The notes below the pieces were generated by a model. That model had not been told where the DNA came from and did not search any database. It saw only the letters and a program-made list of their open reading frames with translations. DNA of 64,000 bases, taken from assembly GCA_024679065.1 (NCBI GenBank), contig JAGIQG010000026.1, forward strand, positions 28,086,001 to 28,150,000. Reading direction: 5' to 3'. Position 1 is the first letter of the stretch, and every line of letters begins with the position of its first letter. The stretch is from Sphyrna mokarran. Taxonomy: Eukaryota. Positions 1 through 47,200 of the stretch are shown in pieces. Position numbers and translations under genes: made by a program.

Positions 1-399
1 GTATACATAAGTGGGCTTCATGATAGAGAAACTCACCCTACTATCCAATCGAATATTGAGATTGCAAATAATGTGATTCTGCCTGAAGCAGTGGCTGGAG
101 AGGGAGATGGAGTCAGTGACAACAGAACAGAGTTTGCAGTGGGAATAAAAATTATACTTTTGATTTTTTTTATATTTAACTAGAGGTAATTGCTGATGTG
201 GACAAAGCTGTTTGACATCACAAAGGTAGGGACAAGTGATGCAGAGGTAGTTTTTTAAAAAATTATTCATTCATGGGATGTGGATGTTACTGGCAAGGCC
301 AGCATTTCAGTGTTGGGTGTTGTCAACATATCTGTGGAATTTTAGCCTAAGTCTCAAATGATGTTCCTAAGAACTTACAGAATGTGAGCAAAGAGGGGT

Positions 400-1900
400 C
401 ACATTAATTGGAGCAGGCCATTTAGCCCATTAAGCCAGTTCTCCATTCAATGAGAACATGGCTGATCTGCAGCCTAATCTCAATATCCACCATTGTACCA
501 TATCCCTTAATATGTTTAGTTAATTTTAAAACTGAAATTGATAGATTTGAATTAACTAATCCAGCATCAATTATTATTGGCAGAAAAGAGTTCCAAACTT
601 CTACCACCCTTGGCAGTAGAAGCAGTAGTTGCTAATTTGACTCCTAAAAGGTCTGGCTCTAATTTTTAGATGATATTTCTGAAGTTCCTCAACTGGTGAA
701 AATAGTTTCACCCTGTTTCTCCTAATATCTTGAAAACTTTGATCAAATCATTCTATAATCTTCTAGTTTTCGGTGAATACAACCTTGGCTTATCTGTCTT
801 CGTAGCTTAACCCTAGGAGTCCAGGTGGCATTTCAATACATCTATATTACAGTCTCTTCAAGGCCAGTACAACCAACTTAAGTTATTTTGTCCAGAACTT
901 CCCACAGTATTCAAAGTGTGGCCTCACCATGAGTTTGTACAGTGGAACATGACGTCCATTCCCATAGTCTAGATACACGACCAGCATTCTGTTAGCCTTT
1001 TTGATGATTTCCCCGACAAATTCATGACACTTTAATGATGTGTACTCGGGCCCCCAAGTTTCTTTGGATCTCCACTGTTTTGAGCTGTTTGCTTTTTAGA
1101 AAGCATTCTATCCTGTTTAGGTCAAAGGTCAATGACCTCACACGTGCCTACTCTGAACTCCACTTACCAGTCTTACCCAATTCCTAATTCTTTGTAATTT
1201 TACACTACACCCACAGTGCTGGTAATGCTGCCTTTTTTTTTTGTTAGCAGCAAATTTAGATATATTCTTTCCCATCATCTAAGTTGCTATTGATGAATGA
1301 ACATGAGGAACCAACATAGATTTTTGAGGCATAAAGAGAAAATGCTATAAAATTCCTGACAGCATCTGTAGGGAGAAAATAGAGCCAAAATTTCAAGTCT
1401 ATATAACTCTTTGTCAGAGCTAAAGACAATTTAAAATAGGATGAGAACAAATATTTGAGGTACCATCAGTCACATCCACGCCAATTAGTGTAGCTGCCCA
1501 TTATCAGAAAACTTTGTCTCCTTCTATTCAGCCAATTTTCTAACAGGATCAATAATTTGCCATCAATCTATGAGGTTCAGTTATTGTTAAGAATCATTTA
1601 CGTGGAACTTCAGATATCTTCTAGCAGTCCATTTAAGTGACAGCTAAAGGAAGTTCCCTGTCCAGTACAATGGATTCTTCAAAACATTCAATTAAGCTCA
1701 TCAGGCATGACTCATCCATTACAAATCCATGCTAGCTTTTTCCGAGCAGCTAAAAATGTTCAAGGTGTTCAGTCACCCTATCCTTAATTTTGGATAGTGA
1801 CAATTTCCCAACAACATATTCTGTCACCTATCGTAAATTGTGGAATGAGATACAATTTTCTAACCTAAAGAGGAGTACTCCAGAATCAAGGATAGATAGT
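400..1900 (-). mobile_element. Decayed CR1-clade LINE (3' tail plus RT remnant)
   Basis: Tail ggagcaggccatttagcccatt...ggctgatctg, followed by degenerate antisense RT sequence (cagtattcaaagtgtggcctcacc). Confidence 0.75.
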
Positions 1901-2539
1901 TCATAACATTCCAGAGGTAATACTAGAGAGTATGGGAAAAGAAACTCTTGCCAACTAAACTCTCACTTGATTGAATGAGTGAATCCAAGTGAGAGGAAAT
2001 GCCACTGCGATGAATAGCAATAGTGAGATGCTGAATAAAGATGCTTTAATCAACTATTTCAAAATCTGTAGAGGTAGAGAAGGTAATAAAAGACTGTGGA
2101 TCATGGTTACAATTAGAGAATCTGATTTCACTGGTGATTTTGCTTAGGGTCATTAAAGTAATGTGGGAAGGACAGGAATTTGAAGAGACTCAAATTGAGT
2201 TGCAAAAGAGTGGGCACAGATTAGATAAGTTAACAGCATCTTTGCTATTTTTCAGAGAAAGTTGGGGTAGAATTTTGCAATTACAGCAGCTTTGAAAGAG
2301 TGGATGGCATTGTCTCTGAGAGGAACCCATTACAAAGTTTGCAGGTACAAAGACCAAGAAGAGAGATTTGGTGCTCAGCAGTTCATTGGGAATAGAATCA
2401 TTGAAGCAAGAAGCGGGTCTCCTAGACGAGATGAGCTTGGACAGAGCATGAGGAAGGTGGGAGACAAAGTAAAGATACAGGTTCAGCAATATGCAGATGT
2501 TCCTTAACAGTGAACTCTCCAGTCAACAAACATAACAAA

Positions 2540-2725
2540 ATTTGAATCATACAACGCAGCCATAATTGCCCTTCTCTTTCAAGATTTTCTGCAGCAATTC
2601 TACCTGACCGGGTTAATAATTATTCAAAAGATAGTCATGCAACTGAGCAAAGAGTACAGCATAACCACTGGATACAATCTTCAGCCGAACAGGCTAGTTG
2701 AGAAATTTAATAGCATGCTAAAGTG
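2540..2725 (+). mobile_element. Gypsy-type integrase remnant
   Basis: About 2661-2723 translates ITTGYNLQPNRLVEKFNSMLK, like the integrase motif TTxYHPQxNGxVERFNxTLK. Upstream AILPDR resembles ILSDRG. Confidence 0.65.
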
Positions 2726-3011
2726 AAGACAGTAACTAAAACTCGCATGAATAGAATTTAACTCTTGCCTGTGTGTAAAGAGATAACCCTGCACTTGACA
2801 GAATCCTCACTCCTTTGGTTAACTACACATGTATATCTGGACTGAAAATAGCCAAAATGACAAATTTTGTTGCAGGATCACTGACCTGGAAGTTTCCTAA
2901 TGGGGTCAATAATTTGTTGTCAATCTATGAACTTCAATTACAGTTAAGAATCTTTTATGTGGAACTTCTTCAGATTTTTCCAGACTCATCCTGTTTCTCT
3001 TCAGTTTTAAA

Positions 3012-3302
3012 TGTTTATTTATTAGTGCCACAACTGGCTTAAATTAACACTACAGTGAAGTTACTGTGAAAATCCCCTCATTGCCACACTCCAGCACTGT
3101 GTGGGTATACTGAGGGAGAATTTAGCATAGCCAATGCACCTAACCAGCACATCCTTCGGACTGTGGGAAGGAACTGGAGCACCTGGAGGAAATCCATACA
3201 AACATGGGGAGAACGTGCAGATTCCACACAGTGACCCAAGCAGGGAGACGAACCAAGATGCCTGGTGCTGTAAGGCAGCAGAGCTGACCATTGTTGCCGC
3301 CC
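3012..3302 (-). mobile_element. V-SINE (HE1-like head and core) with non-CR1 tail
   Basis: Antisense V domain (ggactgtgggaaggaactggagcacctggaggaaatcc) and tRNA-like head; tail ends ...gtggcactaataaataaac. Confidence 0.85.
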
Positions 3303-3389: not shown

Positions 3390-4789
3390 GACTTCTTGCT
3401 CCGTGATTTCAAGCAAACTACAACAGCAAGAACTGTTGAGTTAGTTGTAAGCTAAAGATAGAAGAAGCTGGACTTGGAATTGTAGAGAGCAGATTTCCCA
3501 AAATAACGAAATAAGATTCCAAAAAAAAAGAAATGGGGGTAAAAAAAAAGTCTCAGGAAGACAATTATATTAAAGAAACAAAGAACAAGCAGTTAAACAA
3601 GGTCCTGTTGGATGAATCATTGAATCCCCACAGAACAGAAGACCATTCAGCCCATCAAATCTGTACCAGCTCTCTGAAGAGCATCCTATCCAGGCCCACT
3701 CCCCTGTTCTATCCCTATAATCCTGAACATTTATCATAGCTAATCTACCTCACATACACATCTTTGAAGACTAAGGGCAATTTAGCATGGTCAATTCACC
3801 TAACCTGCACATTTTTGGACTGTTTAGAAGTTTTAGTAAAACTTCTAAATAAATAAACTGCCACAAGAACTACATTTAAAGTCAGCTAGGTGAAATATCA
3901 GACAGCCAAGGTAAATCAAAAGTTTGCTGACACCTTACTATAGCCTGTGAAGCAGTAGTTCTGTTGGCGTGGCTGGGTACTTCAGAGATCAGGTGGAAGC
4001 TCAAGTGCACATGGCAAGAATATTAAAAGGAGGTCGAAATTCTGGAGGTAGTTCTTTGGTGAAAGTATCCAAGAGAAAGTATCATTTGGGGGAAGATCAT
4101 AGGTAGAGGTGGGAACATCGGGGTGGCGGTGCAGGCTCGTTGGGCTGAAGGGCCTGTTTTCCGTCTGTTTTATTCTTTGTTCTTTGAGGCTGGAGTTTGG
4201 AAACCCTTGTGTGGAAGTCAGAGTTCCAATGAGACCAACTGGCATTTGGGAGGGGATTTGATGAGAAATCCACAAGTTGTGTTAGGTGATATCTGTCACT
4301 CAGTTTCAGAGTGTGGTGTTTTTGATTACAGTTAGCCTACTGGTTTACATGGACGGAGTACTTATCGAGAAAATCAGAGTATAAGGTAAAGTTTGTAACT
4401 TGTCATCCTTATAAATATGTATATATTTGTGAAGGTATAGTTGGGGTGAAGGACCATTGTGTTATAGTTAATCTTTTTATTTAATACTTTTTTGGTTAAA
4501 TTGTGTTTTTTATTTAAGAAAAACTTGGACGGGTTCATGAATGAGAGAGGTATGGAAGGATATGGTCCAAGTGCAGGTCAGTGGGACTAGGCAAAAAAAA
4601 TGGCGCGGCAGACAAAAAGAGCCAAAAGGCCCATTTCTGAGCTGTAATTTTTAATGTTCAAAAAGTTAATTGGCAGTCCTCTGATTCTGTTCATCCACAT
4701 CTCCAAAAAAAATTAGCTAGGATTAATCAAACTAGTTTCATCCTTGGATCCGAGTTGTCCAGTAGTAACATCAATTGGGGTCGTTAACA
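3390..4789 (+). mobile_element. Probable solo LTR with nested V-SINE (3630-3824) and two CR1 tails (about 4060-4186 and 4515-4660)
   Basis: Ends ...ggggtcgttaaca, a terminus typical of shark Gypsy-type LTRs. Left boundary uncertain; nested tails recognised directly. Confidence 0.4.
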
Positions 4790-7221
4790 AGGGCGTTTGT
4801 CCTGGGAGAGGGACAGAGTTTAGATGTGGCGAGGTGGGGACCGAAAGCCTCCTGCTCCTCATGACCCAGAAGCAGGACAACGAAGATACTTATTTTCTCC
4901 CTGTAGTTGCTGCCCTCATCTTCCTTTGGTTATCCATCCAGCCACAATTAATCCTATGAAACAGGTTAAACACCTCATTAAAAGATTTAAATTGTCATCT
5001 CATGTCCAGGGAGCTACCCTCCCACTATCCTGTCTCCATCACAACTGAAAGTGGATGGGTTGGAGGAGGTTGTGGTGGAAATTGTTAAAATTTTAACTTC
5101 TGGCCCAACCAAAAATCTCCAGTTTTTGGCTGCTAAAATTCAACCCTAAATTGTGCTATATGCAAATGTTTTGTTTCTTCTTAAATGTTAACAATAGGAG
5201 AACAAGAGTATTTTGTGCAATTTAATAAGGTAATTACCAGTTGCTAATCAATCCCTATGGAATACATGTGAAGTTCCATTCATTCAAATGATGGCCTTTT
5301 CTGCCAAACATGAAAAGAATATTTGGCAAAAGTTTAAAATTGTTTGCCATCATAATGAAAGCTAGCATTAACAGCGTTAGACAAAAAAAGTCACGGCAGT
5401 ATGACTGAGGTATTGAACTTTTGTCATTGTGTAAATGAGAAAAAACAGAAATCCTATCAGACAAAAAGGATGCTTACTCTACAGGCAGTGTTATCAATGA
5501 ATAGAAATCCAATAATAATATGTTAATGGGCTTCATTCAGAAATGGCCCTCTTTATGCCAAGGAGTTCAGAGTTCATACTAACATTTGGAATAGAAAAAC
5601 CAAACCAAATGAAAAACTAAGAGGGACTCCCCACTGTTTCCATATGCATCAAGTTACTGTTACAGAAATGCTATACTCAAGTTATTAAAAATGATTGTGT
5701 CAGTATTGTATGGGGATCGCAAAAATTCCAAATGTTCCTGGCCCATTCTGACTAAATTGCTTTTGCATTTTAAAACTTAAAAATATCTCGGTGAAACATA
5801 ACTGGATTTTCATACAATTTGGCCACCAGGAAGACAGTGATTATTACAGAAGTTGGTTCATATGTGCATTATAAAGTAGGAATGTGAACCACTATTTCTT
5901 AGGAGAGAAGAGAGTGGTGCAAGTGTTCACCATGTACATCCAGATAAACAGCATGTTTCAATTCATTTGATTTCCAGCAATCCTGCAATCAACATCTAGC
6001 TGTTTTTGAAAATGAGCCCAATGTCTGGCCTTAAACACTCCTCCTAAAAACCCTTCTCAGCTGTTTGGAAATATTTAATGATGTTTGGCCTAAATTTATT
6101 CTTTGCTATCCTGACCATGTTACCTCATCATGCTGTTTTAGCACAAATGAAAGCAAGTTTTACTGATTCTCGACCAAGTTTTATTTGGGAGGCTGAAAGG
6201 ACAATGCTTGTCAATTTGTTCCTTGATTTCTTCCATCAGTACATTGAATCAACTACTGTATTATGTCCAGGGACTGACAACTCCTTTGTATTCTTACATT
6301 ACAACGACACAGCATTCAAAGTGGGCCTACTATGGCAATGCAGTTTTCCTGCAAGTTTTGGAATATGAAGTTATTTGATTGAGTACTCTAGTCTAGCATC
6401 CAACTGGTTTTGTTTATTGCCAACATACATTACTTGTTCAATGACAGAAGATGAATCTAAACCTATAAATCTCTCAAACTGCAACTTGGCAAATTCTACT
6501 TTAAAAATGAAGTAGATTAAACTCCAAGTTTACTTTTAACACAAATAGTTCTTGTATAATTTGTATTGTCAAATAGTTACCTTCCAAATACTGGGGTTTT
6601 TGAGAATCTGTGTTTCATTTTATTTTTGATCCATGTAAGAATTAATCCCATTGCTCAATTGCACAGGCTATGTATTTTCCCTATACAACATTTTTAAAGA
6701 TTGCCCATTTATGGCCGACAGATTCATGATTATCCCCAGCCTATGTTAATAAACTCAGCTCCTATAACCTGAAATTTGTCTGCTGAAAGCTTTACACTAG
6801 CATTTTATGTTATTGTGCTGCTGTTGTAAGCTTGTGACTTCATCCAGGAACTTGTAAAAAAAAAAGATGGCCCTTCAAGTGTTGAAACAAAAACGCACTT
6901 CAATTCCACAACAAAGCTGAAGCCCTGCTACGACTGCAAATTCCATCTTAATGTAAATAACCAATTTTGTTTTTTAATTCTTGTAATAAATCCTTCATTA
7001 TTTCTGTAAGTAATGTGTCAATAAAAATTTACAACAGTCCAAATGCATGCTAAATTAAGACGGGAAATTGTGTTTGTGATTGGAACCAGTTACTCTGCTT
7101 CACGTGAAACACCATGAACCGCTGCTGAACATTTCTAGATGTTAGTCACTGAATTTCATATTACTTCATTATTATTAACTATATTTACTTCTGAAGGATA
7201 ACTGGCTGGTTACCTTACTTC

Positions 7222-8144: not shown

Positions 8145-8310
8145 AAGAACTACTAACTGCAAGAACTACTAACTGCAAGAACTACTAACTGCAAGAACTA
8201 CTAACTGCAAGAACTACTAACTGCAAGAACTACTAACTGCAAGAACTACTAACTGCAAGAACTACTAACTGCAAGAACTACTAACTGCAAGAACTACTAA
8301 CTGCAAGAAC
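8145..8310. repeat. Perfect 16-bp minisatellite (AAGAACTACTAACTGC) x10 plus partial copy
   Basis: Read directly: 166 bp, no variant units. Confidence 0.98.
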
Positions 8311-26200: not shown

Positions 26201-29200
26201 AGATACAAGAAGTGCATTCTTTATTAATCATATTACAAAATCTTAACATTTCAAAACAGCTATATAGAAAACCAAATCTCAAATCAAAGTAAAATCAAAA
26301 TTCAAGTCTGCATATGGATCTGCACAAAACCAGTTTACATAGATGATTTAATAATAGCAAAGCCATTTTTTGAAGATGTGTATCTACAAAAACATACATT
26401 GCCTGCAAGTTGATCAGAAGGACGTGCACAATATTAAGCTATCATTGCAAATTACAGCACTTGCTGCACAGCTTCTCACTCTGACAGTAATTCTAGCTGT
26501 GCATACTGTCCATAGAACACAATAATTCAAGACTTACCTCTGATTGAAAATACAAAAATGCCAACAAAAGCATTACATGTGATTTCAAATCATTTTTAAA
26601 TGACTGTTTCCAAACCATTTTAATATCACATTATTATAAACGCAGGGACAGCACAAGTCATAAAGGGAGGCCTCCATCTATTTGTTACTTTATACTGCGA
26701 AGATTACTGTATGAAACAGAATTTTTTAATTACACAGTATAAATGAAACTCTCTCAGGTAATGCAAAAAAAGTCAATACAATTTTCTCCAACACAAAAAT
26801 GTCAGTCATAAATTTTCTTTCAATGTTTAAACAGTATTAAAATATGTTAATATTCCAACAACTAATTTAATTTGTCTTGCAGTACCTAAGCTCACACATA
26901 CACTTATTCCTGCTACAATCACACACTCAGATGGTCTCTGAAAACACAATTTACATAACTGCACAGACAAAATGAACAGTTAAACCTGTGGATAAATTAG
27001 CACAGTATGCTCACACATACGCAAAAGTATCTTGCAGCAAAGCAGGCAAATGTGTAAATGTATATGCCAGCTTGTTAATTAATTTATATAGGCTTGTATA
27101 AAATCAGACTGAATGTATATAAAGAACAGGAAATGCATGATAATTTGTACAGAAACATGTTTTATAAGAGATATTTAGAAGATATACAAGCCATCTATTT
27201 GACACACCGATATAGTTTTTGTTGATTCTAATCAAAAATATCTTTTATATTCCAGGTGCATTTTATTAATTTTTTTAAAGCACAAGTTATTTCAGAAGGA
27301 AGGATGTACAAAGAACAAAGAAGCACAGGAAACAGGCCCTTCGGCCCAACGAGCCCGCACCGCCTCCTCCATGTTCCCACCTCTACCTGTGATCCCTGTC
27401 TATGTTTAGAGATCTATGGATTAAAAACCAAATGAGACAATTTAGGGAGAATTTGTTTTGCCAATTAGCCTAAGAGCACATCTTTGGGATGTGGGAGGAA
27501 ACCGGAGCACCCGGAGAAAACCCACGCAAGCACGGGGGGAATGCGCAAACTCCCACAGACACAGGCCCAAATCCATGTATCTGCACAGCACAGCAATAGT
27601 CACTGAGCTGTCGTGTTGCCAATCAAATGGTCCAGGTCAAGCGTACACTAACGACGTGAAGCACTAGGATACTCTCGAAAAAAATCCAAGAGCAGCCCTC
27701 TCACAACCCATCGTGTGTATGCCCCTCATTAGACAACAAGGTGGACCAAAGCACCTGTAGGATAAAAACAAGTACATCAATATCATCATCTATTTACACA
27801 CTTCCCAGGGACTCCCAAGGATCATGATCCCTATTTTAAATCAGTTTTCTATACCCCTCCATTCCCATTCTGTTCATGTGCCCATCTAAGTATTTCTTAA
27901 ATAACTCCAGAGTACCTGCCTCACCACTTTACTTGGCAGCACATTCCATACCCCCACCACCCTCTGTGTGAAAAAACTCCCTCTAGCATCCAAATTATAC
28001 CTCACCCCCCTCACCCTAAGCCCGTGATCCCTCGTGCTATTCAAGTCCATCCTAGGAAAAAGCTTAACCCTGTTTACTCTATCTATACCCCTCATAATCT
28101 TGTACACCTCTATTAGATCTCCTCTAAGTCTATGTCTTTCTAAGGAAAACAGTCCCAATTTGCCTAACATCTCCTCGTAACTCAGACCTTCCATACCAGG
28201 CAGCATCCTGGTAAACCTCCTCTGCACTCTCTCCAGAGTCTCCACATCCTTCCGGTAGTAAGGCGACCAGAACTGGATGCAGTTTTCCAAATGAGGTCTA
28301 ACCAACGTTTTATACAACTGCAACATTAAAGGCCAGCTCTGTACTCTATACCCCTTCCTATAAAGGCTAGCATACTATATGCTTTCTTCACAACCTTCTC
28401 CACTTGCTCTGCCACCTTCAGAGACTTGTTCACCTGCACCCCCAGGTCCCTCTGCATTTCTATATGTAATGTAACATGTTTTCTTCACGCTTTACCACAA
28501 ATTTTTTTTGATCAAAGTTGTAGTTTAAAATGTGTTTTTTTCCCTTCTGTAATTTTTCTTTGGATCTTAGGAAACACATCAGTTTGATGGATTCTCAGCC
28601 AAAACTGCTACTGTTGTAACAATTCAGTGGGCAAGTTCACATACCAGAGAACTATATTTCTGACACACTTATGAACTAAATGTGCATCCCAGTTAAATTT
28701 GTTAAAATAGGCAAGATTGAGTGAATAGTATTTTACAACCATTTGAAAATTACAACAAATCTAATTAACAGATTAATGAGAAACTATTCACCTTAATTGC
28801 CTGCTTGAGGCAATAACGTCACTATAATTTTCAAAATAGGCACAATGTAGCTAAAATCAGTACTATACACAGCTCCCCGCACCTTTCATCTCAAATGCAA
28901 TTGCTTGCAGTGGGGAACAGTGGCATGTTTTTGCTGTAGTTGAGATTAATAGCATTGATTAAATTCACCCTTACTACACCTTATGTATAACCCCCACTGG
29001 GCACTTGCAGTATTGCATCTTCACTTGTTCAAGTACACAGAAAATTGCAAATATTAAAGGGAACTTGACTCTACTGCTACAGGAAATATTGCTCGAGGTA
29101 AGACGCACAAATTAATTTCTCCCCAGATAAAGTACAGCATGGGCATAACAGTACTGCATAGTCTTCCTACTGAAACAAGGGCACAATCCAGCAGGTACAG

Positions 29201-32200
29201 CTGTTGTATTCTTCCCTCAATATACTACCTAATGGAAACAGAAGCATCATATTTTGCTCCAGTAATCCAATACCTCAGGCACAGTATCTAGAAGGTGCAA
29301 AGACACCAGTTTATGACTTCAACTTAATGGTACTCACCAGCACTGGGAGCCTGGCCATGGATTAAAGTTGGAGGTTTCAGCCGAAAGCCAACATTCTTCT
29401 CATCTAAAGAGAAAGAAAACCAGTGATTAATCTGAGATGTATATTTATATTTCTGCACACCTACTTTTTTTTGTGGGAGTCATATGTCAGGCAGCCCACA
29501 AATAGGACAGCACAGGGAGTTCACATCCATAGCATCAGGCCTTTCAGCTTCTCAAGTTTTTATCTAAGGTAAAAAGTACAAAAAGAGGGCTGAGAGAGGG
29601 AGGGGAGATACTTTACAGTACTGGATTATAGGACTTACCTGGCTCTGAGTCAGAGTTGCTGGCTGCTGCCTGGCAGAAACCCAATGGCATAAAGACATTA
29701 TTCTTTGGAACTGCAAGATAAGGACAGTGGCAGTGAGTATCAGTAGATCACACCAATTTTAATAGTCCCTAATTCTGCAGATTATTCACCAATGGCTCTT
29801 CCTTCCAATGTGCGTTGGGATTTTCATAGTCAAGGGAAGGACTGCAAATAATGTCAGTGGCTTGAAAAAGTGCTTATTGGTCAAAACAACATACTAACCG
29901 TGCAATTTACTCTTGTCTGAATCACCAAACTACGGCACAACATACTGAAAGGAATCAACTTAGTCATCATTTGTTTATCTATTACATTTTAGAATGTCAA
30001 TTGGGCCATAAAGACTTGCAATTCAGAATTTAATTCTAAAACCTTAGAATACTAATGATTACTTTCATTTGACTAAGAATCGGAAATGTGACCTCTGACG
30101 AGATGATCGATTGAGAAATTGGCAAAATCATGCATAATAATTTGAACTGATTATGTCTTACGTGCCATACTCTAAATTTCAACAACAGCATTTCGCATAA
30201 GTTGATTAACAAACTGGTTTTTAAATCAGTCTGTATCAGAAATTTTCCTTCAAGTGTGTTCAATAAAGTGTGAAGTCCCAACGCTGCTGTAGGATTCAGT
30301 GCAAGAATCCAAAGTTACTGAAAATGATTGCTAGCACAAGGGGACACAGCTTTAAATTAAGGGGTGATAGTTATAGCACAGATATCAGAGGTAGGTTCTT
30401 TACCCAAAGGGTGGTTTGGGAGTGGAATGCCCTGCCTGCAGCAGTTGTAGATGCGCCAAGTTTGGTGGCGTTTAAGAGGTTAGTTGATAAGTATATGGAA
30501 GAGAAGGGAATGGTTTAGTTTGGAGGGGCATTGCTTTTTATATTGGTCGGCGCAACATCGAAGGCCGAAGGGCCTGTTCTGTGCTGTAGTGGTCTATGTT
30601 CTATTAATTTGCCAATAACTGGGTATCTAGTTCTGAAGATGAAGGTCCAGAAAGAAAAGTACAAACTTTTACATTTTAGATAGCAGTCTTTTCATTCCCT
30701 GAATAAAGTTCAACCACACACAAATGCAAAATTCCTCTATCCATCAATATCAGTTAATAATATCCTATTATAATTAAATCAAATAGTCTTGAAAGGGCTC
30801 CCATTGCAGTGCCCAATGTGCTTGCCTTGTAAAGAAGTGGGTGGGTGTGAATAAGCCTAAATGTCATTCTATCGTCTTGGACCTGGAAGCCACAACAGTG
30901 ACGAACATTTCTAATTACTTTAAAATGCTTGGGAAATCCAATTGTTAAAAAAATGATTGAAATTGACTTTTAAGAGTTTGTATCTACTGTAAAGAGTTTG
31001 CATGAACAGTAAATATAAAATCAATTACGACTTTTGGATAAGAAGAAACACTGGTCCACGTGACCTTGGAATGCTTGACCTGGAAGCAATCCCAATAGGA
31101 AGGAAGTAAAAATGTGCAGGCCAACGAAAAAAAAGAGTAATGGGGCGGCTGGAGAAAGGAGGTGGTCAGCAAGACAAATTGAAGAACTGAATTTCTGAGC
31201 AGTTGAAAAACTCGTTTAGAGCTGCTATTGCTGTATCTTTCATTTCCGAGTGATTGAATATCACAAATCTGCCATATCATGCAAAAATAAAGGCAGTTTT
31301 GGAAGATGCATCAGGGAAAAAAGTTACCTGGAAATTTGGTCCATGTGGCAGTCAAACCCCTTTGGTTAAGTACTTCAGATTTGATGCACGCTCAGGGACA
31401 AGAGGGTGTGACTACGAGGGAGGTACGTACAGGGATCCAGAAGGTAGTTCTGGAGGAGCCTCAGCCCTTCCACTTGTCCAACCAATAGGAGGTTCTTGCA
31501 ACCTGTATGGACGAGAGCAGGAACTGCGATATGGGGGCCATCCAAGTTGGGGGAGTGAAAAATAATGCACTATTAGTAGGCGACAGTTTAGTTAATGGGA
31601 TAGGTACTGTTCTCTGCAGTCAAGAGCATGAATCCTGAAGCCTGTACTGCCTGCGCAGTGCCAATGTAAATACATCTCATCAGGACTGGAGAGGAACTTG
31701 GAGCAGGAAGAAAAGGATAACGTTTTTGTGGTCTACTTTGATACCAGTGACACAGGCAGGACTAAAAACAGATTCTATTATAGAAGTACAAAGTAGCTAA
31801 CCATTAGATTAATAAGCAAAATGGCAAAGAGAATTCCCCTTTATGGGAGAAACATAAAACTAGAGGTCATAGTTTCAGAATAAGGATGCTCTTATCTAAA
31901 TTGGAATTGAGGAGGAATTTCTTCTCAGAGGGTTGTCAATGTTTTGAATTCTCTACTGCAGAGAGAAATAGAGACGGGATCATTGAATATATTCAAAACT
32001 GAGTTATACCGATTTTTGATCAACAAGAAGTTAAGAATTATGGGGTGGAGTAGAGAGGTTGGTCAAAAAGGAAAGTGGAACTGAGACCCAGATTAGATCT
32101 TATTGAATGACGAAGCAGACTTGAGGGACCAAATGGCCTTTTCTTGCCTCTATTGCTTATGTTCTTATCTATTTGGTTCTCAAGCGATTCAAAACTTTCC

Positions 32201-35200: not shown

Positions 35201-38200
35201 GCCGGTCAGGTATTGAGGGTGCGACAAAGTCTTACCCTCTACTCATTTAGGCCACCCCCTGAGTGTTACTACTAATGGGGAGAGGGCTTTTATTTAAAGC
35301 CCACTTGTTTGAAACAGACTTTTGTAATACTGAAAGAACACAAGCAATGCGGCCCCTGTAAAAAGGTGAATGCAAAGGATTTTCTATCTATCTCAGAGAG
35401 CAGGAGCTCTCGTATCTGTCCCGGCCAATATTCACCCCTAGCCAACAACGCTTTAAAGAGATTATTTGGTCTATATCACATTGCTGTTTGTGATCATTAT
35501 CTCATGCTTATGTTCAAATTGGCTGCTGCATTTCCTACTTATAATAGTGACGACACTTCAAAAGTACATCACTAGTTGTAAGCGTTTGGGGCATTCTGAG
35601 GTCGTGAAAAGGTGCTAGACAAATGCAAGTCCTTCTTTCAAGAAAAGGATTACAATACCATTTAAAAAAGATGCATATTTGTAACGAAAGAGAAATATGA
35701 TTAGAATAAACAACTCCAGTTGAACACCTAGCAACAGCTTTTGTTTAACACCTTCTATTGTGTTTTAATTTGTTTGATTCTATGATCCCAAGAAATATAG
35801 CTGTTTTGTGTATCAAAACATTTGAGAACAAGGATTTAGGTTTAACAAACGCAATTCTGTCTGGTGCAAGACTCATGTGAATGCAGACATACTTTCCAAG
35901 CATTGGTCATACACCAATATATGCTGCACCACAGAAATGGCCACATTTCAGCAAACAATAAAAAGCAATAAAATTGTGGGGCATCACAGTTTAAGGATCC
36001 TAACCTGACTGTACCATTTCGTGTAACTTATCTTTGAGCAAAAAATGTTCAAACACTGAAGACAAGAAATTCAAATTACAGTAACCTATTCGAAAAGTGA
36101 CACCCTTAACCAAGGGATTCTACCACATTTTTCTATGCTTCAACTCTGAATAATCCGGCTTGCAAGATAAACTAACACAGCTCCACCACATCTGACTTTT
36201 ACTCTTCTAATATGAAGTTAATGATGATGATTGCTCTATCCAAACCTTCTAAAAGAATTAATAGCTTTGAGGGAAAGACAACTAAAAATACACATAAAAC
36301 ACCATTACTACTGACAGAAGCTATTTGGAAAGTTGCATAACAAGTGAAGATTGTCTACTCGAGAATAATAGTTCCATGTCGAAGACTATCTTTCTGAAAA
36401 AGAGAATACAAGCTTTGCATATAAAGCTTGTATGGGAAAAGATGGGAAAAACATCACCTCTAATAGCCAGAGATACTCCAGAGACATTGTACAGAGCATA
36501 AAAGTCAGTTGCAGCCATGCTGTAACAAAAACACATTCCTGTTGTGCTAAGGATTCAGTACCAAGGTTTGGAAACCAACTTTACCTCCAAAACCATACCA
36601 AAGATGCAATGATTTGTAGCAACAGAATAGAATATTGGTTCAGGAAATTCTAAGCTTCTCACAAAAGAAGAAAATAAATAGTAAACCGGGCTTTATTTAT
36701 AAATATACCAAACAAATTGGAAAAATTGCAAGATACATAAAGCAAGCTTGTAGAATGAAGTGCAATTTTCTCTCATTTGGCAAGCATCCCATCCATTATA
36801 TGGAGTTGGGAAAAGGTTTTTCAATCACAATGAAAAGGCTTATTATTAAATACGCACAGAGTAAGGTAATAGTAGTCATGTTCTTCTGGTGATGAGAGCA
36901 TTGTTAGCTTGTCTTCCCCTCAAAGCTACTAATTCTTCAGAAGGTTTGGACAGAGCAATCATCATTATTAACTTCATATTGGAAGAGTAAATCAGGTCTT
37001 CTGAATCAAAATGTCTACAAGTGCACATACACACAATGGGGTAGGAGGAGGTTGAAAAAAATAGTATGAACAGTCAGTCATTGGTCACAAAATGAGCATT
37101 TCCAACATGCAGCTGGAATTTGGGATTGAAAAATACCAATTCTGTAATTCCACTTCATGCTTAAGATGTCACAGCACTGCAGGTATCCTATACTAATGTG
37201 ATCTATGTTTATTTTCATGAAATGTTTCAATAAATATTCGAAGATCAGTCTTTAAGCGAAGTAATTTATTTACCAATAAGTAGAACAAATCATATTTTCA
37301 ATTTCTGAGCATATAAATATTTCTCTCTTACTCCACAAACTGCCTTTTTTGCCAAGTTACCTTCTACTTCCTCCCACTTGAGCAAGGAATTAATTTTGCA
37401 GTGTGACCAAAAGAATTAAATATGTAGCTGTGGTGAAGTGACTGGCCAAAGGAAAAACTATATTGCATAGACTCAAGGGCCTGCACATCATTTCAGGTTG
37501 CTTGTAACCGTGCTAAGAATGCACTTGTTTAGCTAATGAAGAATCCCAATTATTGAACAGTCAGAGAGAAAAAGAAAACAATGCTTCATTTGTTCATGCT
37601 TGGAAAAGGAACATACCTGGCTGTGAAGGTGGGAACACCTGTGTGAAAGACGAAGATCTCTCTCTTTTAACAGGTGGAGGATAGTTACCATCATCTTTGT
37701 CAGAATCTGAAGAAATAAATTAATTACATGGAGAAGAATAACTTTACGTTTAAAATGTAGCCACTGAATCTGAAATACTAATCACCTGATTTATTCTTAA
37801 AAAGCTGCAATTACTCTGACCTGCAGCCAAAAATTTACATGCAAGTTATAAATGCCCTTTGAGTTCAAAAGTTTATAAAGAACTATAATTTTCTAGGTTT
37901 ACCTTTGTGGACAACTTGCCAAAGAATTATTTAACAATGAGTTAGAAAAACAAGCTAAGTTTAATATAGCTCCATTTTAGGAACTAAATATCTGAACAAG
38001 AGGAAGCACTAACGGCCCATAACTTCTGCAGAGTGTCAATCTCCATAAGATTGTCACGCTCGACAGATGTACCCACAGGGGGATTCCAAAGCTCTTGTCT
38101 TGCCCAATCTTCCTCACTCAGTCTGGGTAAGACAGGAGTAGTGCAGCGTGCCCTTGGCAGCATCAGCATGAACTAACTAGGATGCAGACGAGAAGGAATT

Positions 38201-41200
38201 GGCAGTAACACTCCCTCTAGAGCCAGGGGAAGCCAGAAGGACAGGGTGTAGTAAGAGCTAGAAGAAGGGGTTGGGCCGGCTTGGGAAGAGAAATCAGAGC
38301 AGTGCAGGGAAGCGTCAGATAGGGAGGTTTTGGGGGTTTGAGGGGAGGACCCCAGCTGGAAGGATGGTTGACAGGGTTGGAGCTGGAGTGGGATGGCTGT
38401 GGTGATCCCTTAGTGGGAGGGGGATTGTTTATCGGTTGTCCCCTGTATGGCTGGGTCTGAAGTCAGTGTGGAAGTGTTTCTTTTCTTGTATCTCTAAGAG
38501 TAACTATGAGGATATAATTGGCTGAACCATTTGAAGTTAAAGTTTTAAATCGCTGCTGTGATAGTTCCAACAGCACAATTGTCCAGACAAGTTAACATTT
38601 CTGAGCAATTGCCAGGTAAATCCTTAGGTGGGAACTTCCAAGAGTGATTTCCCAGTGCATCACTGGGGTATCAGGAAGTTTATGGATCAATATTTTCAAA
38701 CAGGCACAGAATAAAACATGAGAACCAATCAAATGAACATGCTTACCTTCTGCATCTTCAGGACTGGAGGTATCTACTGGCCTCTAAAATATAAAAAAAG
38801 CCCATTATTCTCAAATTTTCCTAGTTCTATTGATTACACTTAAAAGCACACTTCTCCCTGCCACCTACCAACATGAGACGGCAGTGTCATAATTGAAAAC
38901 AAAAAGAACAATAATTTAAAAGACTTAATTATGAAAGCCAAAGATCTAGTAATCAAGCAATATTCATTTGGGGCTATATTTAAAAGTTACTGCAGAGTAT
39001 TTTTAAAAAATGAAATGCTGTAATAAATGTAATAAAAGATCCAAATCATATTGCAAGGCACCTGATTTGGATCAAAGTTTGCATCAGGTTTAGTCTGAAT
39101 CAAGTTTAGTTCCTTTTGCTCAATCTTTTGCATATTCAGTTACCCAGATTTCAGGAAAACTAACCGTGGCAACATTTTTGTTTTGATAAAAACTTTGCAC
39201 AGATTTTGACCCATCATATGATCTATTTCTACACAGAACATTTTCAGTTCTGCAATGTCAAGTGTGAACACTTGATGCAATAAATTAGACAACATTATTG
39301 AATACATTTCAGAGTTCAGACAGCCAGTAATATTTAAGGATAAATACAGCAAATGTATCAATCGTCAAAAAAAGACACAAAGCTGGTAATTCCAAATGTT
39401 CTGGCAGCATCCACAAATGTTAATCATCCTAGCTCTAGTGAAACAAAGGCTTAAGCTCACAAGTTTCTCTTTATAACCATAAAACGTCAACCATCATAAT
39501 CATGCCAGTGAAACAATGCTGCATTTTTCATCATCTTCCTAGAATTTTTATAAAAATATGCTCAAAACTATTTAAAATATTTCAAATTTAGCATAATGTC
39601 TACAACTTCAATATTATTTACTTGCTTTTTCATTCAATGTCACATTAACAAAATGGTTGACAGCATTAGATGGAATGATACATGGACATCTAAAAAGTAC
39701 TGGCATTATTGAAACATGATGTGGAGATGCCAGCGTTGGACTGGGGTAAACTCAGTAAGAGGTCTGACAACACCAATTTTAAATCCAACCGATTTATTTG
39801 ATAGTAAACTTGCTAGCTTTCGGCCTTTGTGCCTTCATCAGGCGAATGAGATGTTCTGGTCTGCAATGTTCATTGACCAGAACACCTCATTCGCCTGACG
39901 AAGGCACAAAGACCGAAAGCTAGCAAGTTTACTATCAAATAAATCGGTTGGATTTAAAATTGGTGTTGTCAAACCTATTATTGAAACAGTCAGCAAAGTT
40001 TCAAACACAGCACACTACACCATGCAAACTTCCTGGAGTTCTTTTGCAAATAACAAAGCCAGCTAAAAGGCAGAGCTCTTTCCTTGAAACTAGTACATAA
40101 AATTCAAACTGATGGAGCAGTTGACAAGTTAACTATTAAACGGATTGAGAATGTGCAATACCACAGTGATCTCCTGAGCTAGCTACTAAGGCAAAACTCT
40201 GCAATCAGTTAAATGCTTGTATGGAACTGAGAGCTGGAGAGATCAAGTGACAGCCCTCATCTGTAATTACGTTTGTGACCAGTATGCAAAGGATAGTGAT
40301 GAAAAAAATCAAAATGTTACATGACAGAAGCAGGTAGTTAATCATCCTAGCTCTAATAAAATAAAGATTTAACCTCAAGTTTATAACCGTAAACTGTCAA
40401 CCATCATAATATGCCAGTGAAACAATGCTGCATTTTTCATTACCTTCCTACAATTTTTATAAAGCTCAAAACTATTTGAAATATTCCAAATATATTACAA
40501 TATAATATTCTACAACTTCAATATTATTTACTTGCTTTTTTATTCAACGTCACAATAGAAACAAGAATTTTACTTGCTTCTTCTTGACCATATCTATTTA
40601 TGGTGCTGCCTTTAGTGATCTGTGCACATGGGCATTACAGTGACAAACATAGATGCTTCATAGTATCAGGAGCCCGGGTCCAATTCCAGACTCGGATGAC
40701 TGCCTATGCGGAGTCTGCACATTCTCCCCATGTCTGCATGGGTTTCCTCTGGGTGCCCCAGTTCCCTCCCACAGTTCAAAACGTGCAGGTTAGGTGGATT
40801 GGCCATGCTAAATTGCTCCTTAGTGACCAAAGATTTGTAGGTTAGAGGGATTAGCCATGGTAAATGCACAAGGTTATGGGGAGGTTTGACAGCATTTTAA
40901 ATTTGATAGCATTTGATAATTCTGAACAATAGGTTATCAAAAGACAACATGTATCTCAAGTCTGCACCAGTGCTTTTTCAAGAAGCACCTAGTTTAATTG
41001 CACTCTTTCTTGTTCTTCCATCTCTCAATTGTAGTTTTTCAAGAAACCATCCAACTCCTTTTGGAAGAGTTTATGAACTTGGCTTCAATAAAGATTTGTG
41101 GCAGACAATTCCCATTTTTAATAAAATCACTTGGTCAAATAACTATTTCCAATCTCTCCTTTAATTCTAAAATTTGTGCTCTTTATTTAATATCTCATTG

Positions 41201-44200
41201 ATCAATAGACTGAAGCAAACTGCCAGCACACACACACATGCCGAATGACTCTCTGCACTCGAAACATCGAAGGTCTGTATCATGATCCTGACAATTTTGA
41301 TTTTTCTTTTTACATGAACCGTTATTGTCTGCAAAACTTACCCAAAAGCCCCAGGATCCCAACACAGTTAAAGTCTTTTTCTGGGAATTATGAAATATGT
41401 GATTCCAAGTTTAACATCTCCTACTTGGCTGAATCTTTGCAACAGAAACCAATAATTTATTGAGCTCAGTAAATAATACCAATATTGTTCCAGAATTCAG
41501 TAAATTACAATCAAATTAACTTATGATGTTTTGTGGTTATCTTACATAGTGGGATTGACAGCCTCCTCAGACTCAATGCATAAACCCAAGAACTGAAGTA
41601 CTTCATCACAATATTCACAGGACAAGTTGATAATGCAGTTAAGAAAGTGTATTGAAATGATGGCTTTGTAAATGTGGGTATTGAAAAAAAAACAAGGAAA
41701 TCATTTGTGACCTTCACAGATCACTGGTCAGGTCTCAGCTGGAATACTGTCTAGAACACTAGGCAACACATTTTAGATAGGAAATTAAAAAGACTTGGAA
41801 AAAATACAAGGGAGATTTATCAGGAATGAAGAACTTTAGTTATGTGAAGAGAATGGAATGCACCACCCTGTACCTGAAACAGTGGTAGGAACAAACGCCA
41901 TAGGAACTTTCAAAAAGCACTTATATTAACATGTAATTGTACAGGATTAATATAGTGATTATGGGGTATGCCTCCATCTATGTCACAAAATATATCTGGA
42001 GTCACTGCTGAGAATTATTGTACAAAATGCAGGTACAAGCATTATCTATCTTGGGAACAGGTTGCAAGATTAATTTGGATGAAGACAGTGAATGAAGATT
42101 ACCTTAAGCTCACCCATTTATAAACATTTACAGTCCCTTATGCACAGTTTTCTAAATGATTCCAAATATCTTGCAGTCAAGTTTAATCTAACTGTACTTG
42201 CATCTAAAAGTACTTACTCTCCATGTGAGGAAATTTTTGACAAATTGCAAGCTTGTCTTTCATTAGTTTGAACCCACGTAAGAGGTGTTTTATCCTCCAG
42301 ATACCACTTATCTTGAAGTAAAAGTCTCTCCCAATAACTTACATATACCAACCCAGACACCGTTTTTATGTAACTCAGAGGCAACTATAAGAAATCCCAT
42401 AAATGTTGCTCATTACAGACTTGGAAATATGGAGGAAAGCCGTCAGTAGCAAGAATAGGTTATGAATGACTCGCACCCAATTATTTTGCTAAGTTTTAAA
42501 CTTTTCCCCAGGAATCTGTCCTTTATCAGCTATCACTCTTTTCTCCACAGTCCCCTGCTAACTCCTCCCTCTAACAGTAATTTAGCTTGTCTGCTCCCTG
42601 GCCTTTTCTTTGCATCTCCGCAATTCTTTTCCCTTCAAGGTATCTTTTGTAAAGATATTGGTGAACCACAACTGAATCTGCCTCCATTACCTTTTCTGAG
42701 ACCGTATTCCAGATCGTAACTACCCACAGCATTAAAAAAGTTCTTTCACATATGATTATTTTTGCAAATCATTTTAAAATCGGTGTCTCAATCTTTCTGC
42801 TTGTGGGAATAGTTTAGAACATAGAACATTACAGCGCAGAACAGGCCCTTCAGCCCTCGATGTTGCGCCGACCAATTAGGAACAAGCAGTGACCCTCTAA
42901 CCTAAACCATTCCCTTTTCATCCATAAACTTATCTACTAACCTCTTAAACGCCACCAAACTTGGCGCATCTACAACTGACGCAGGCAAGGCATTCCATAC
43001 CCTTACCACCCTCTGGGTAAAGAACCTACCTCTGACATCTGTCCTAAAACCACCACCCCTTAATTTAAAGCTATGTCCCCTCGTGCTAGCTTTCTCCATC
43101 CTAGGAAAAAGGCTAGGATGGAGTTTGTCCATCTACACTGTCAAGATCCCTCATGATCTTCAGTACCTCTACCAAATGTCCTCTTGAAAACTCTAATCTT
43201 CTTCAATCTATCTCTGGACCCATTATTTTCTGCATCTGCGCTAAAGTTTTCATATTCTTCCTGAGATACAGTGCCAAGAATTGGTTATCATACCCCTGCT
43301 GAGGCCAAACCACTGTTTTATAAAGGTTCTTTATTTCTTCTTTATTTTGTACCATGCACTGAAACTCAGATTTCCTTATGACTTTTTCACCACTTTGTCA
43401 ACCTGCTTTCCATCTTCAAGTATTTGCGCATTTATATCCCACAGGTATATCTGCTCCTGTAATGTACTGGACAACATCATTGCAGTAGTGCCCAATGTAA
43501 TTGCACTAAAGTAGTTATTTTCCCAAGGCAATTAATTAATGCTGCCTGTTTGAGGTAGATTATGAAATGTTTAAAATGTAAAAGCCAAAGCATATTTTTA
43601 GAAAGTGGGTAAGGACATTCACCGTCTGGTTATGAACTCTTACAGCAAAAGAATTTCACCACTTCAAATCTGTGTGCAAAAGTTATGCAAATATATGCCT
43701 CCTGATAGTAAACTTGAAGATACCAAATAACTTCAAATTCTAAAATTGTATTTTCACAGATAAAGATGAATTCATAGATGCATTAACTGTTGATACCATT
43801 TATATTTTAGAAAGTAAAATTATTGTCTTCTAAAATAAATCTTGTTATTTATAACATTGATGAAATTTAAGGATAAATTACATTGCCTAATACAAACTTA
43901 AAGAAAAGCAGGTGCCAACAATGCTCACATATCCTACTATTGTGAGACTTATAAATCTGTGTGGCTAATAATTGCGGGTCAGATTTTGAAGAAAGAATGA
44001 CAGCACTGGAAGGCTGTATACTGTTATTAAACTGCAAATCAGCCTGAACTTGAGAGAGCGAAATAACACTTGAATTGCAAATCACTACAACTAGCCAGCT
44101 GACTGCACTGCTCCATTATTGTGAAAAGCTAAGTCTAGCAAAATTAACAATGTAAGTGCCAGTTTAAAGATATCATAATTGTTAATGACTGCTTACTCAG

Positions 44201-47200
44201 AAAATAAGCAAAAGTATGGAATTTCTTTCAAGTTTTGAATTGTTGCTGGAAATTTTCAAAATGTAAAAATTGCCTTTTTTGCTTGTAGTAAAACGTATTA
44301 TACTCCAACGTATTCCCCTCTGTTAAATTATCTTTCTGTTCATATTTTGATATTGATTCACCAACTCTAATTCACTTTCCTTCTCTGTCTTTCCTCTGCT
44401 TATTGTTCAATCCTTTCTTCTACTTGAGATAGGCTGTTTATTCCCTCATTCTTCAAAATCCCAAATACCCTGCTGCCCTTTTGTTATCAGCAAGCACTAG
44501 CAGCAACTTCATGGGTGTTTTTTTCTGAAAGCTGAAAAGGTTATCTAACACAACACAGTATGCCACATTTCAAAAAAGACTGGGATTTTTTTTTTGGGGG
44601 GGGGGGGGGGTTAATTAATCTCAAGTTATTCTGATTCAAATTGCCAGTACCTCCCTTGTGCTTGTCCAATCCCTGAACAAGTTCCAAGGTAATTTAGTGA
44701 TTTGCAAAATGCCACCAATTTCTGTAAATTTCTAATCTATTTCACTGGAGTATGTTCCTTTTCGTTTCACGAGGAACCAATCCTGATCTCTTTTATATTG
44801 CACTTCTGTATCTTAAGCCAAATTCTCTCGCATTTCTGGATTCAATTACTCCAACATTCTCTCATCTGAAACTTGGTGTCTTTGAGAAATTCCTTGTATT
44901 TATTGTTACCTTGTTTGATGGCGGTGTAGGCGAGGTCATTGGTTCAAGTTTTTCCTATAAACACAGCAATTATGATAAACATTTTTAAAATCCTAAATAT
45001 AAAAATCAAAATTCAATACAATACTTTAAATATAATTTAACTTAATACAGTACAATATAAAACAGAAATACAAATTAACAAATAGGACACTGGGTAATAT
45101 TTTAAACTTTTTCTCAACAAATTCCTACTTTGTATTCTTTCAGTGAGGCACAGTGCATCTTTTGATAACTCAATAAAATAGTTGTAAATCTCAAGAGTGA
45201 GCTTTGCAAGCTCATTAAACTTCTTGTAGACAGGGAGATGGCAAATGAGAAACATGATAGCCAGAACTGACCCAGTTTTCATCTGATATCTTGGTACAGT
45301 TCCAGGGAATGACTGGATATCAAACAGGGTCCAAAATCATTGCCAATTCTCTTCTTAATTCAGATGTGGCAGCCAATAATAATGCTCTGACCTCATTCCA
45401 ACTGAAATCAGCTACTAATCACAGACTAGAGATCAAGCGTGGGATCTTACTGGTCTGTATAGATGACCTATTCACTATGTAAACCTGACAAAATGTTTGG
45501 GAGAGTACATTTTAACACTAAAACAAACATGAAGCAAAGACAAATAATAGGTAGAGGGCATACAGGGAATAGAGAAAGAGGTTTATTTTCATCGAGACCC
45601 CAAGATGAAGTGAAGAGCCCATAATGAACAGCAACAATGTAAAAGGGCAAACAATAGCAAAGGAAATCAGATAATACAGTACGCAGGCTTAAAAAAAAAA
45701 TCAGAGAAAGAGAAAAAAATAACCTTTATAGCAAGTTCTTCAACATCACTAACATTTAAGGAAGGGTCACAACATATTGAAGGATACCAACAGCATTATA
45801 AAGGATAGGTTAAAATACAAAATAAGCCCAGTAGTGGTTAGCTTACACCCAGCTTAGTTGCACTTGCAAACAAAATGTGGAAAACTGTTTTCGAACGACT
45901 AAAAACAGAATTCCACAATCCAAGTAATCAATAAGGAAAAGGTCAAGATTTGATCTGGTCCGATCAGCCAATAGACCACTAAGCTAATTATACGCTAAAG
46001 CTGCTTAAATTTGAATCACAGAACTGAGGGGGTAAAGATGGGACTGTACCAGGAGAAAAAGGATGGGAAATAATTGTGGTCTTACTGGGAACAAGAATAT
46101 TGAAGTAAAGGGCAAAAGAGTAGTTAAGCAAAGCAACAAGGAGAGAGCTAAAATTGAGGGATCTGGGAATTTTGACAAATAGGTGACTTGAGGAAGAGAT
46201 TTTGCATAGATGATTGCATTGGAATTGAAGGAGAGTAGTAAAATGTGAGCGGTGAGGGAGAAAAATGTGGTTAAAAACTATTTTGTCGTGATTGAGACTA
46301 AAGATGCAAAGGGCGCCAGAGAGAACAAAGTTATTGAGATTGTGGAACATAGGAGTTTACTGAAGTGCAAAATGAAAAGAAAGCACTGAATTTGGAGAAG
46401 AGGAGCAAAGAGGGTTGAGATCAGAGACTATAGTCACCAAGGATGAGGAGAGGCTTGATACAAGAACAAAGAAAAGACAGAAGAGAGACGATCTCAGTGA
46501 GGACATCATCGTGGGCCTTGGAGGTTATAGATTATGATGTTTTCAAATGAATGGCAAGAATAGAGGAGAAGGCATGGGTCAAGAGGGAACCTATTGTTCA
46601 CGTAAGGAGAGCAGATATGACAGCTGTGTCGCTATAATGGAAAATTAGATGGGGCAGTGAAAATTTCAACACAGAAAATAGAAAATATCAGCACAGATAG
46701 ACTTAAAATGCAGTGGACACATCATAAGCACTCTCTGTGGTAATATTTTATGCTTCAACAACCCTCTCCTGTAAAAGAAATTACTCCTTCCTCATTCTCA
46801 GCAAGAATTTTTAATTGATCAGCTTGTCATTGATTTTCCGACTGGATGGAACAGTCCTAACCTATTAAAGCCTCACGAATTTTAAAGCCTCTATTAAACC
46901 TTCTTTTGGTTTTGTCTGCTCCGATGGAAATCCTCTTATTATCACCGGTTTCATCTCAGGCTAGTTTCTAATGTTATCCTAGTAAATTCAAACCGTAATT
47001 ATTTGAAATCCCAGGTGGTTCCGTAGTGCCTGTCCAAAAAGCACTTATTTGCCTTTTCTCCTAAAATGTATTATCTCACTCATATCTACATTAAATTTCA
47101 TCTGTCAGCTATACCCAAGCTTTTCAACTTACGACTTACTGGCACCTTTCTATCTCATTTTTTGGTAAACATTTTACTTTTGTAATTTTAACTGTGTTTC

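Follow-up and report, generated by a model that had tools for sequence, protein, structure and literature searches.

Endonuclease-bearing Penelope-like elements (PLEs) are known for the peculiar layout of their genomic copies. Adjacent pLTRs in inverted orientation, mostly head-to-head, with flanking target-site duplications (TSDs) of 8-10 bp and a tail of 31 bp borne by one member of the inverted pair, were described in PMC3846280; PMC8557442 gives an inverted 5'-truncated copy and a tail of 30-40 bp, often at one end only, as the typical PLE layout, and inverted pLTRs and short 3' extensions are listed as known PLE peculiarities in PMC8969392. According to PMC11167929, the tail is the distance between two start sites of reverse transcription, both DNA strands are nicked and extended, and ATT is preferred.

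PLEs also carry minimal hammerhead ribozymes, which occur in pairs, 100-700 bp apart and on opposite strands. Their reported features are an extra base between positions 9 and 10.1, a G10.1-C11.1 pair and a palindrome at 15.2-16.2, with covariation across families (both from PMC4209133). In the experiments reported in PMC4209133 and reviewed in PMC6765202, a single minimal PLE hammerhead did not cleave and dimers cleaved poorly, and the anole PLE ribozyme cleaved only with its protein, as described in PMC11167929. What PLE hammerheads do in vivo is called unclear in the literature (PMC8557442).

Here we describe an insertion in an intron of the RANBP3 gene of the shark Sphyrna mokarran, most likely a new instance of this already described type of endonuclease-bearing PLE insertion. 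It was analyzed within a window of 64,000 nucleotides (the whole stretch of DNA studied). The insertion shares with the units of Penelope/Poseidon, Neptune and Nematis, as presented in PMC3846280, PMC8557442 and PMC11167929, head-to-head inverted 5'-truncated copies, an extension at one end, a short TSD in an AT-rich target starting with ATT, a hammerhead in the repeat, high copy number and a fixed 3' end. It differs in that both halves are cut to about 100 nt, so that there is no ORF and no direct pLTR, and in that its tail of 43 nt and its TSD of 12 bp somewhat exceed the 30-40 nt and 8-10 bp of the published units. The earlier note on this DNA called the 43 bp a unique end; we find that the arrangement is nothing special, as it matches the published PLE insertion unit, and that this end corresponds to the PLE tail.

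Structure of the insertion and its place in RANBP3

The features discussed below are as follows.

38784..44909, minus strand: host intron of RANBP3, between exons 44954-44910 and 38783-38747 (tblastn)
39705..39716, no strand: TSD, left copy; 12 bp, exact match, starts with ATT
39717..39759, minus strand: 43-nt extension of a single arm, interpreted as the Penelope 'tail'
39760..39861, minus strand: left arm, read as a 5'-truncated pLTR end; sense on the minus (RANBP3) strand, 102-bp inverted match
39793..39798, minus strand: AATAAA hexamer within the left arm, on the RANBP3 strand; a candidate poly(A) signal only
39814..39841, minus strand: minimal hammerhead motif of the left arm; 3-bp stem II, predicted cut between 39814 and 39813
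39862..39874, no strand: head-to-head junction (loop) of 13 nt, probably in part element-derived
39875..39976, plus strand: right arm, read as a 5'-truncated, tail-less pLTR end; sense on the plus strand
39895..39922, plus strand: minimal hammerhead motif of the right arm; a derived G>A at 39912 weakens stem II, and the cut is predicted to fall between 39922 and 39923
39977..39988, no strand: TSD, right copy; exact match, kept once at the empty site

The exact 12-bp direct repeat at 39705-39716 and 39977-39988 is formed by a 12-mer that has only these two occurrences in the window (chance about 3e-7 per position), and between its copies lie 260 bp made of a 43-nt end, a 102-bp arm, a 13-nt loop and a second 102-bp arm. 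The inverted arms are mismatched at 4 of 102 positions, all by transitions (pairs 39764/39972, 39824/39912, 39837/39899 and 39851/39885). All of these elements had been named in the earlier note and were recovered in the sequence; the insertion itself is borne out both by the exact repeat and by an empty site with one target copy, described below. The sense strand of each arm points away from the loop. As 43 nt at one end are unpaired, the inverted repeats do not form both termini; the insertion contains no coding sequence. The last 2 bases of the left TSD copy also match the element end in many copies of the family, and the alignments of family contigs continue from the left arm for about 5-6 nt of the loop (to 39866-39867, with gaps).

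The host gene was identified through a 41-residue frame over the exon at 37713-37618, for which 42 proteins were retained among 43 candidates, all of them from cartilaginous fish and 41 named Ran-binding protein 3. Exons were placed by tblastn of 7 of these 42 cartilaginous-fish RANBP3 proteins against the window. RANBP3 lies on the minus strand, splice sites are visible at the downstream exon 38783-38747, and this nearest exon is 922 bp from the TSD, in agreement with the original proposal that the insertion resides in the RANBP3 pre-mRNA 0.9 kb off an exon. A PDB search with one exon gave no match, and a search of the literature with an exon motif gave none either. The 45-nt exon 44954-44910, upstream of the element, is absent from one shark isoform (P0007) and may be alternatively spliced.

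Empty site and age of the insertion

Of 24 public sequencing runs, four (X1, X21, X3 and X4) were aligned to the stretch at 80% likeness. In run X21, one 670-nt contig spans 39509-39704 with 10 differences and 39977-40217 with 14 differences (aligned lengths of 196 nt and 241 nt, respectively); because it is unbroken across the target, it represents an empty site with a single target copy. The insertion is thus true and is absent at the same site in a related genome. In run X1, the left junction is crossed with 0 differences and the right one with 1, by contigs that reach 24 and 30 letters into the element, i.e., just below the 31-letter bridging rule; one record of this run extends from 39947 into the right flank. 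These unbroken junction contigs suggest that the X1 sample lacks an empty allele. Run X4, which may be of RNA, does not cover the flanks of the element.

The divergence of the arms is 4/102, or 3.9% (95% interval 1.1-9.7%), and that of the flanks from the empty-site contig is 24/437, or 5.5% (3.6-8.1%). The insertion is therefore lineage-specific, but some time has passed since it arose, barring an origin of the arms from two templates that already differed slightly. It can be called young in the sense of lineage-specific only. The insertion could serve as a presence/absence marker between lineages.

Copies of the family share one end

Run X1 alone contributes 45,477 records that fall on the stretch, almost all of them on the element; as the 80% threshold takes in a sister subfamily, the summed depth is not a copy number. 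In this run, 2,528 contigs with unrelated flanks end at 39715-39717. Loose ends at 39715, 39716 and 39717 number 1063, 808 and 657 in X1, 693, 480 and 416 in X21, 118, 84 and 73 in X3, and 75, 48 and 47 in X4, so a common end at the tip of the tail is seen in 4 of 4 runs, and the existence of multiple copies with common ends, which had been put forward for checking, is thereby established. Since the flanks of these shared ends are unrelated, the 43-nt end has the same tip at thousands of loci. The consensus of the loose ends before 39715 has the same three final letters in all four runs, and in sense orientation the last bases of the tail may be an ATG, which could be where the source ORF begins. 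Among the loose ends listed (787 more exist), the tail-less end at 39760/39976 is not seen. Within the window, blastn detects no other copy, and the tail pattern searched with 3 mismatches has 1 match, which is the element itself.

The sister subfamily diverges behind 39775 and at the 3' strand of stem I (39924-39927). It prevails in run X21, with T at 39924 in 449,934 of a depth of 493,454, and forms the minority in X1.

Hammerhead motifs of the arms

The CUGANGA...GAAA-GCUA cores are located at 39895-39922 on the plus strand and 39814-39841 on the minus strand, one per arm. A scan of the whole window with the core pattern yields 3 matches, namely the two arm cores and one at 36056-36095, and so places both cores on opposite strands, as had been claimed. 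The boxes CUGANGA, GAAA and UH are present in both arms, and the triplet is CUA. There is an additional A at 39902 (between 9 and 10.1), G39903-C39914 corresponds to G10.1-C11.1, and a palindromic AGCU occupies 39918-39921; of the four features on record for minimal PLE hammerheads, three (the extra base, the G10.1-C11.1 pair and the palindrome at 15.2-16.2) are therefore present. The assignment to the Penelope-type minimal hammerheads, also proposed in advance, fits the description in PMC4209133. Among the best 40 of 75 family variant rows, the core positions are variant-free.

The helices, on the other hand, differ from those of the minimal hammerheads (min-HHR) that Cervera and De la Pena 2014 (PMC4209133) described for metazoan PLEs. 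Helix II consists of 3 bp in the left arm and 2 bp in the right arm versus 7-8 bp in the Schistosoma families, and helix I of two Watson-Crick pairs followed by a mismatch or bulge. In folding predictions, the left core in isolation forms stem II with a probability of 0.22 and the first stem I pair with a probability of 0.045, and the right core in isolation forms stem II with a probability of 0.003. The family variants G at 39925 (27% of X1 depth) and A at 39927 (40%) give better predicted stem I pairing with the 5' strand of this copy.

The search for hammerheads with Rfam returned 7 matches at E<=10, and no hammerhead family was among them; such a miss is expected for motifs without helix III. 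The best Rfam match, an Enterococcus sRNA, was rejected: it scores 28.4 bits versus a gathering score of 440 and reflects the hairpin only. The hammerheads are most likely passengers of the pLTR.

Relation to PLE proteins

No reverse transcriptase (RT) or endonuclease ORF of this family was found, and the tail and core patterns had 0 matches in viral and GTDB contigs; the PLE partner is accordingly one that we infer. A 21-base hammerhead core pattern matched 5 metagenome loci (L001-L005). In L005, a 967-aa ORF (328-3231) has RT and GIY-YIG domains above the Pfam cut-offs and a CX4CxxC linker, which PMC8557442 presents as typical of Neptune/Nematis, and the hammerhead core pattern lies 642 nt downstream of this ORF. 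In L002, an endonuclease fragment (E 6e-12 to L005) lies 753 nt upstream of the core pattern. L001 and L002 represent a single element, whose RT fragment falls below the Pfam cut-off, and L001 was accordingly omitted from the comparison of downstream DNA. Judging by these unrelated loci with the same core motif, the clade of the shark family would be Neptune-like. Homology of L002-L005 to the shark family beyond the core was rejected: in 4 of 4 loci, the similarity of the downstream DNA does not exceed that of shuffles (163, 185, 330 and 645 of 1000 shuffles as good), hence these are motifs of the same type and not members of this family.

L005 appears to be an intact PLE unit of the Neptune/Nematis type, with its hammerhead at 3873-3905, for which the predicted pairing suggests a possible palindromic helix III of 8 nt together with a helix I of 4 bp. 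In L003, the hammerhead motif at 5957-6111 is flanked by a 37-bp inverted repeat common to L004, and no PLE ORF is evident in the ORF list of L003.

Origin of the insertion

We propose, with a probability of about 0.85, that the insertion is a TSD-flanked head-to-head fold-back that arose in one event through a PLE RT and GIY-YIG endonuclease, and that it is a dead, doubly 5'-truncated pLTR end. The PLE protein would nick both strands of the AT-rich target, 12 nt apart, and reverse transcription would begin internally at two positions separated by 43-45 nt, so that the tail would be included in one arm and missing from the other. Both cDNAs would terminate about 48-54 nt upstream of the predicted ribozyme cut; as they extend upstream past this cut, the RNA template would have been uncleaved. 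The two cDNA 5' ends would then be joined head-to-head, and gap filling would yield the TSD. Alternatively, the same product may be reached by self-primed fold-back of one cDNA, a route proposed in PMC3846280. Six positions of the first 12 tail bases match the target, and this match may have aided priming at the tail-less end, although homology is not needed for priming according to PMC11167929. As it stands, the finding matters little: it adds one clean example, with a verified empty site, of a described type of PLE insertion.

The fold-back joints of other copies have different centres, running from 39775-39822 to 39875-39937 among the best 15 of 160; this variation suggests that fold-backs formed repeatedly and independently, and speaks against a unit fixed at 260 bp. 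Together with the common end in 4 of 4 runs, the same joints (best 15 of 160) show the family to have a fixed 3' end and variable 5' truncation. They bear directly on another reading, which we consider very unlikely, that the insertion is a discrete non-autonomous, retrozyme-like fold-back retroelement whose whole 260-nt hairpin was transcribed, and then retrotransposed by PLE proteins acting in trans. The lack of coding sequence would suit such a unit, as would the depth of some sister junctions, which amounts to several single-copy units (the junction 39812 to 39926 in other copies has a depth of 117 in X1 and 51 in X21 versus about 15-17 for the flanks), and a 2026 preprint (10.64898/2026.07.22.740005) ties animal retrozymes to PLE pLTRs. 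Apart from the varying centres, however, the own loop of this copy is found at a very low depth in the family (all_depth 208-310 at 39871-39873 versus millions at the tail), and retrozymes are described in the same preprint as head-to-tail tandems, not inverted pairs. More generally, the insertion shares with the non-LTR retrozymes of animals (PMC7229834; 10.64898/2026.07.22.740005) its short length, lack of coding sequence, type I hammerhead and relation to PLEs. The retrozymes differ in being direct tandem units with canonical hammerheads that yield circular RNA, and the insertion in that its two minimal motifs are inverted relative to each other, in its tail and TSD, and in having no other copy in the window. 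Of the view that this is a non-coding ribozyme-bearing retroelement, the absence of coding sequence and the ribozyme motifs are retained, but the insertion looks doubly truncated and not like a distinct element, given that the centres of other fold-backs differ.

Least probable of all is an origin at the DNA level, as a MITE or fold-back DNA transposon or as a solo PLE end duplicated in inverted orientation by repair after insertion, which the long near-perfect inverted repeats and the TSD would call to mind, but the unpaired 43 nt leave the inverted repeats non-terminal, the family has a fixed 3' end and variable 5' ends with no uniform unit, and the TSD encloses both arms at a clean empty site, so that the insertion brought in both arms.

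The predicted hairpin in the RANBP3 transcript

The predicted energy of the hairpin is -184 kcal/mol on the plus strand (z -24.9) and -193.9 kcal/mol on the minus strand (z -30), and 0 of 200 shuffles were as good in either case. All four arm mismatches are G.U pairs on the RANBP3 strand, on which the hairpin is therefore fully paired. An imprint of ADAR on the RNA intermediate was considered as the source of these G.U pairs and is ruled out at 39851 and 39912, the two of the four positions that could be polarised directly: the family majority in run X1 is G at 39851 (137,444 of 167,081 depth) and at 39912 (131,950 of 155,453), so that on the minus strand the two changes are C>T, and they carry no A-to-I imprint. 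The other two mismatches have the same direction (C>T, minus) by loose-end consensus rows only. The same direction in all four events has a 1 in 8 chance.

Folding of growing transcripts in silico indicates that the core is paired to the antisense arm with a mean probability of at least 0.96 at every step, and forcing the hammerhead fold within the hairpin would cost 74 kcal/mol. The prediction that the sense ribozyme is trapped in a dsRNA hairpin on the RANBP3 transcript thus agrees with the modelling. It is a different matter whether this trapping is what makes the insertion tolerable, as the earlier note supposed. In that scenario, which we regard as highly improbable, the sense ribozyme would cut the RANBP3 pre-mRNA, and the insertion is tolerated since the antisense arm, made first, traps the ribozyme and AAUAAA in dsRNA. 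The predicted pairing and the +74 kcal/mol penalty are in line with it, as are the four G.U mismatches on the RANBP3 strand and the under-representation of retrozymes in Xenopus introns reported in 10.64898/2026.07.22.740005. Against it speak the inactive single minimal hammerheads and poorly cleaving dimers of PMC4209133 and the protein-dependent anole ribozyme of PMC11167929, and the stems of the present motifs are poorly populated alone. Without the antisense arm, the core is predicted to prefer competing hairpins (-7.6 versus -5.0 kcal/mol), and a 6-bp GCUAGC duplex (-8.2 kcal/mol) to outcompete the 4-bp AGCU dimer helix (-2.5 kcal/mol). Moreover, the antisense-first order follows from the geometry of any tail-out fold-back on either strand and hence shows no selection. 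Caging is probably not needed, the proposal that it renders the insertion tolerable finds no support, and a selected role is improbable for the predicted hairpin of the RANBP3 pre-mRNA.

If the folding predictions hold, PLEs would place perfect 100-bp RNA hairpins in host introns, and their editing could be tested in shark RNA data. Two further intronic inverted repeats, possibly MITE-like, are present in the window: 56605-56755/57029-57179 (151 nt, 90% identity, 273 nt apart) and 36198-36253/36936-36991 (56 nt, 93% identity, 682 nt apart). Given these repeats, dsRNA in the introns of RANBP3 is not unique to the insertion.

Fold-back junctions near the predicted cut

The sense arm begins 1-14 nt past the predicted cut in 14 of the best 15 of 160 joints, and the best-supported sister fold-back junctions lie 0-8 nt past it. 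Among the best 12 of 167, 6 of the 8 rows with at most 4 letters between the two sides have one arm end at -1 to +3, provided that the intervening letters are read as family variants. The X1 depth drops from 1,263,941 at 39924 to 155,453 at 39912. The arms of the copy described here begin 48 nt upstream of the predicted cut.

It is conceivable, though we think it rather unlikely, that many fold-backs of the family end 5' at or just past the cut and that this shark-type PLE family has often been copied from ribozyme-cleaved RNA. If true, cleavage by PLE hammerheads in vivo would be recorded in the genome in a form that can be counted, and since the role of these hammerheads in vivo is open, enriched truncation at the ribozyme cut would matter more than the insertion itself. 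The clustering of junctions near the cut has simpler explanations: alignment loss where the sister subfamily diverges in stem II, chimeras that arose by snap-back or in the library at the palindrome that surrounds the cut, stalling of the RT at stems, or an artefact of listing the deepest rows. PMC11167929 reports no RNA ends at the cut and describes cleavage as not required in vitro. A report of fold-back ends enriched at the PLE ribozyme cut was not found in the literature searched, subscription papers being outside its scope.

Other repeats around the insertion

A direct duplication of about 230 bp with 82% identity (39419-39647 and 40337-40557) flanks the insertion. It was considered as a possible source of a paralogous empty site within the window and was rejected, as it stops short of the target site. 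Fragments at 30330-30603 and 42815-43090, in opposite orientations, 12 kb apart and about 90% identical, are presumably LINE-like 3' fragments, and we likewise take the 162-aa frame at 27886-28374 to be LINE-like; the SINE-like repeats of the window look shark-like to us. A perfect tandem array with a 16-bp unit occupies 8145-8304.
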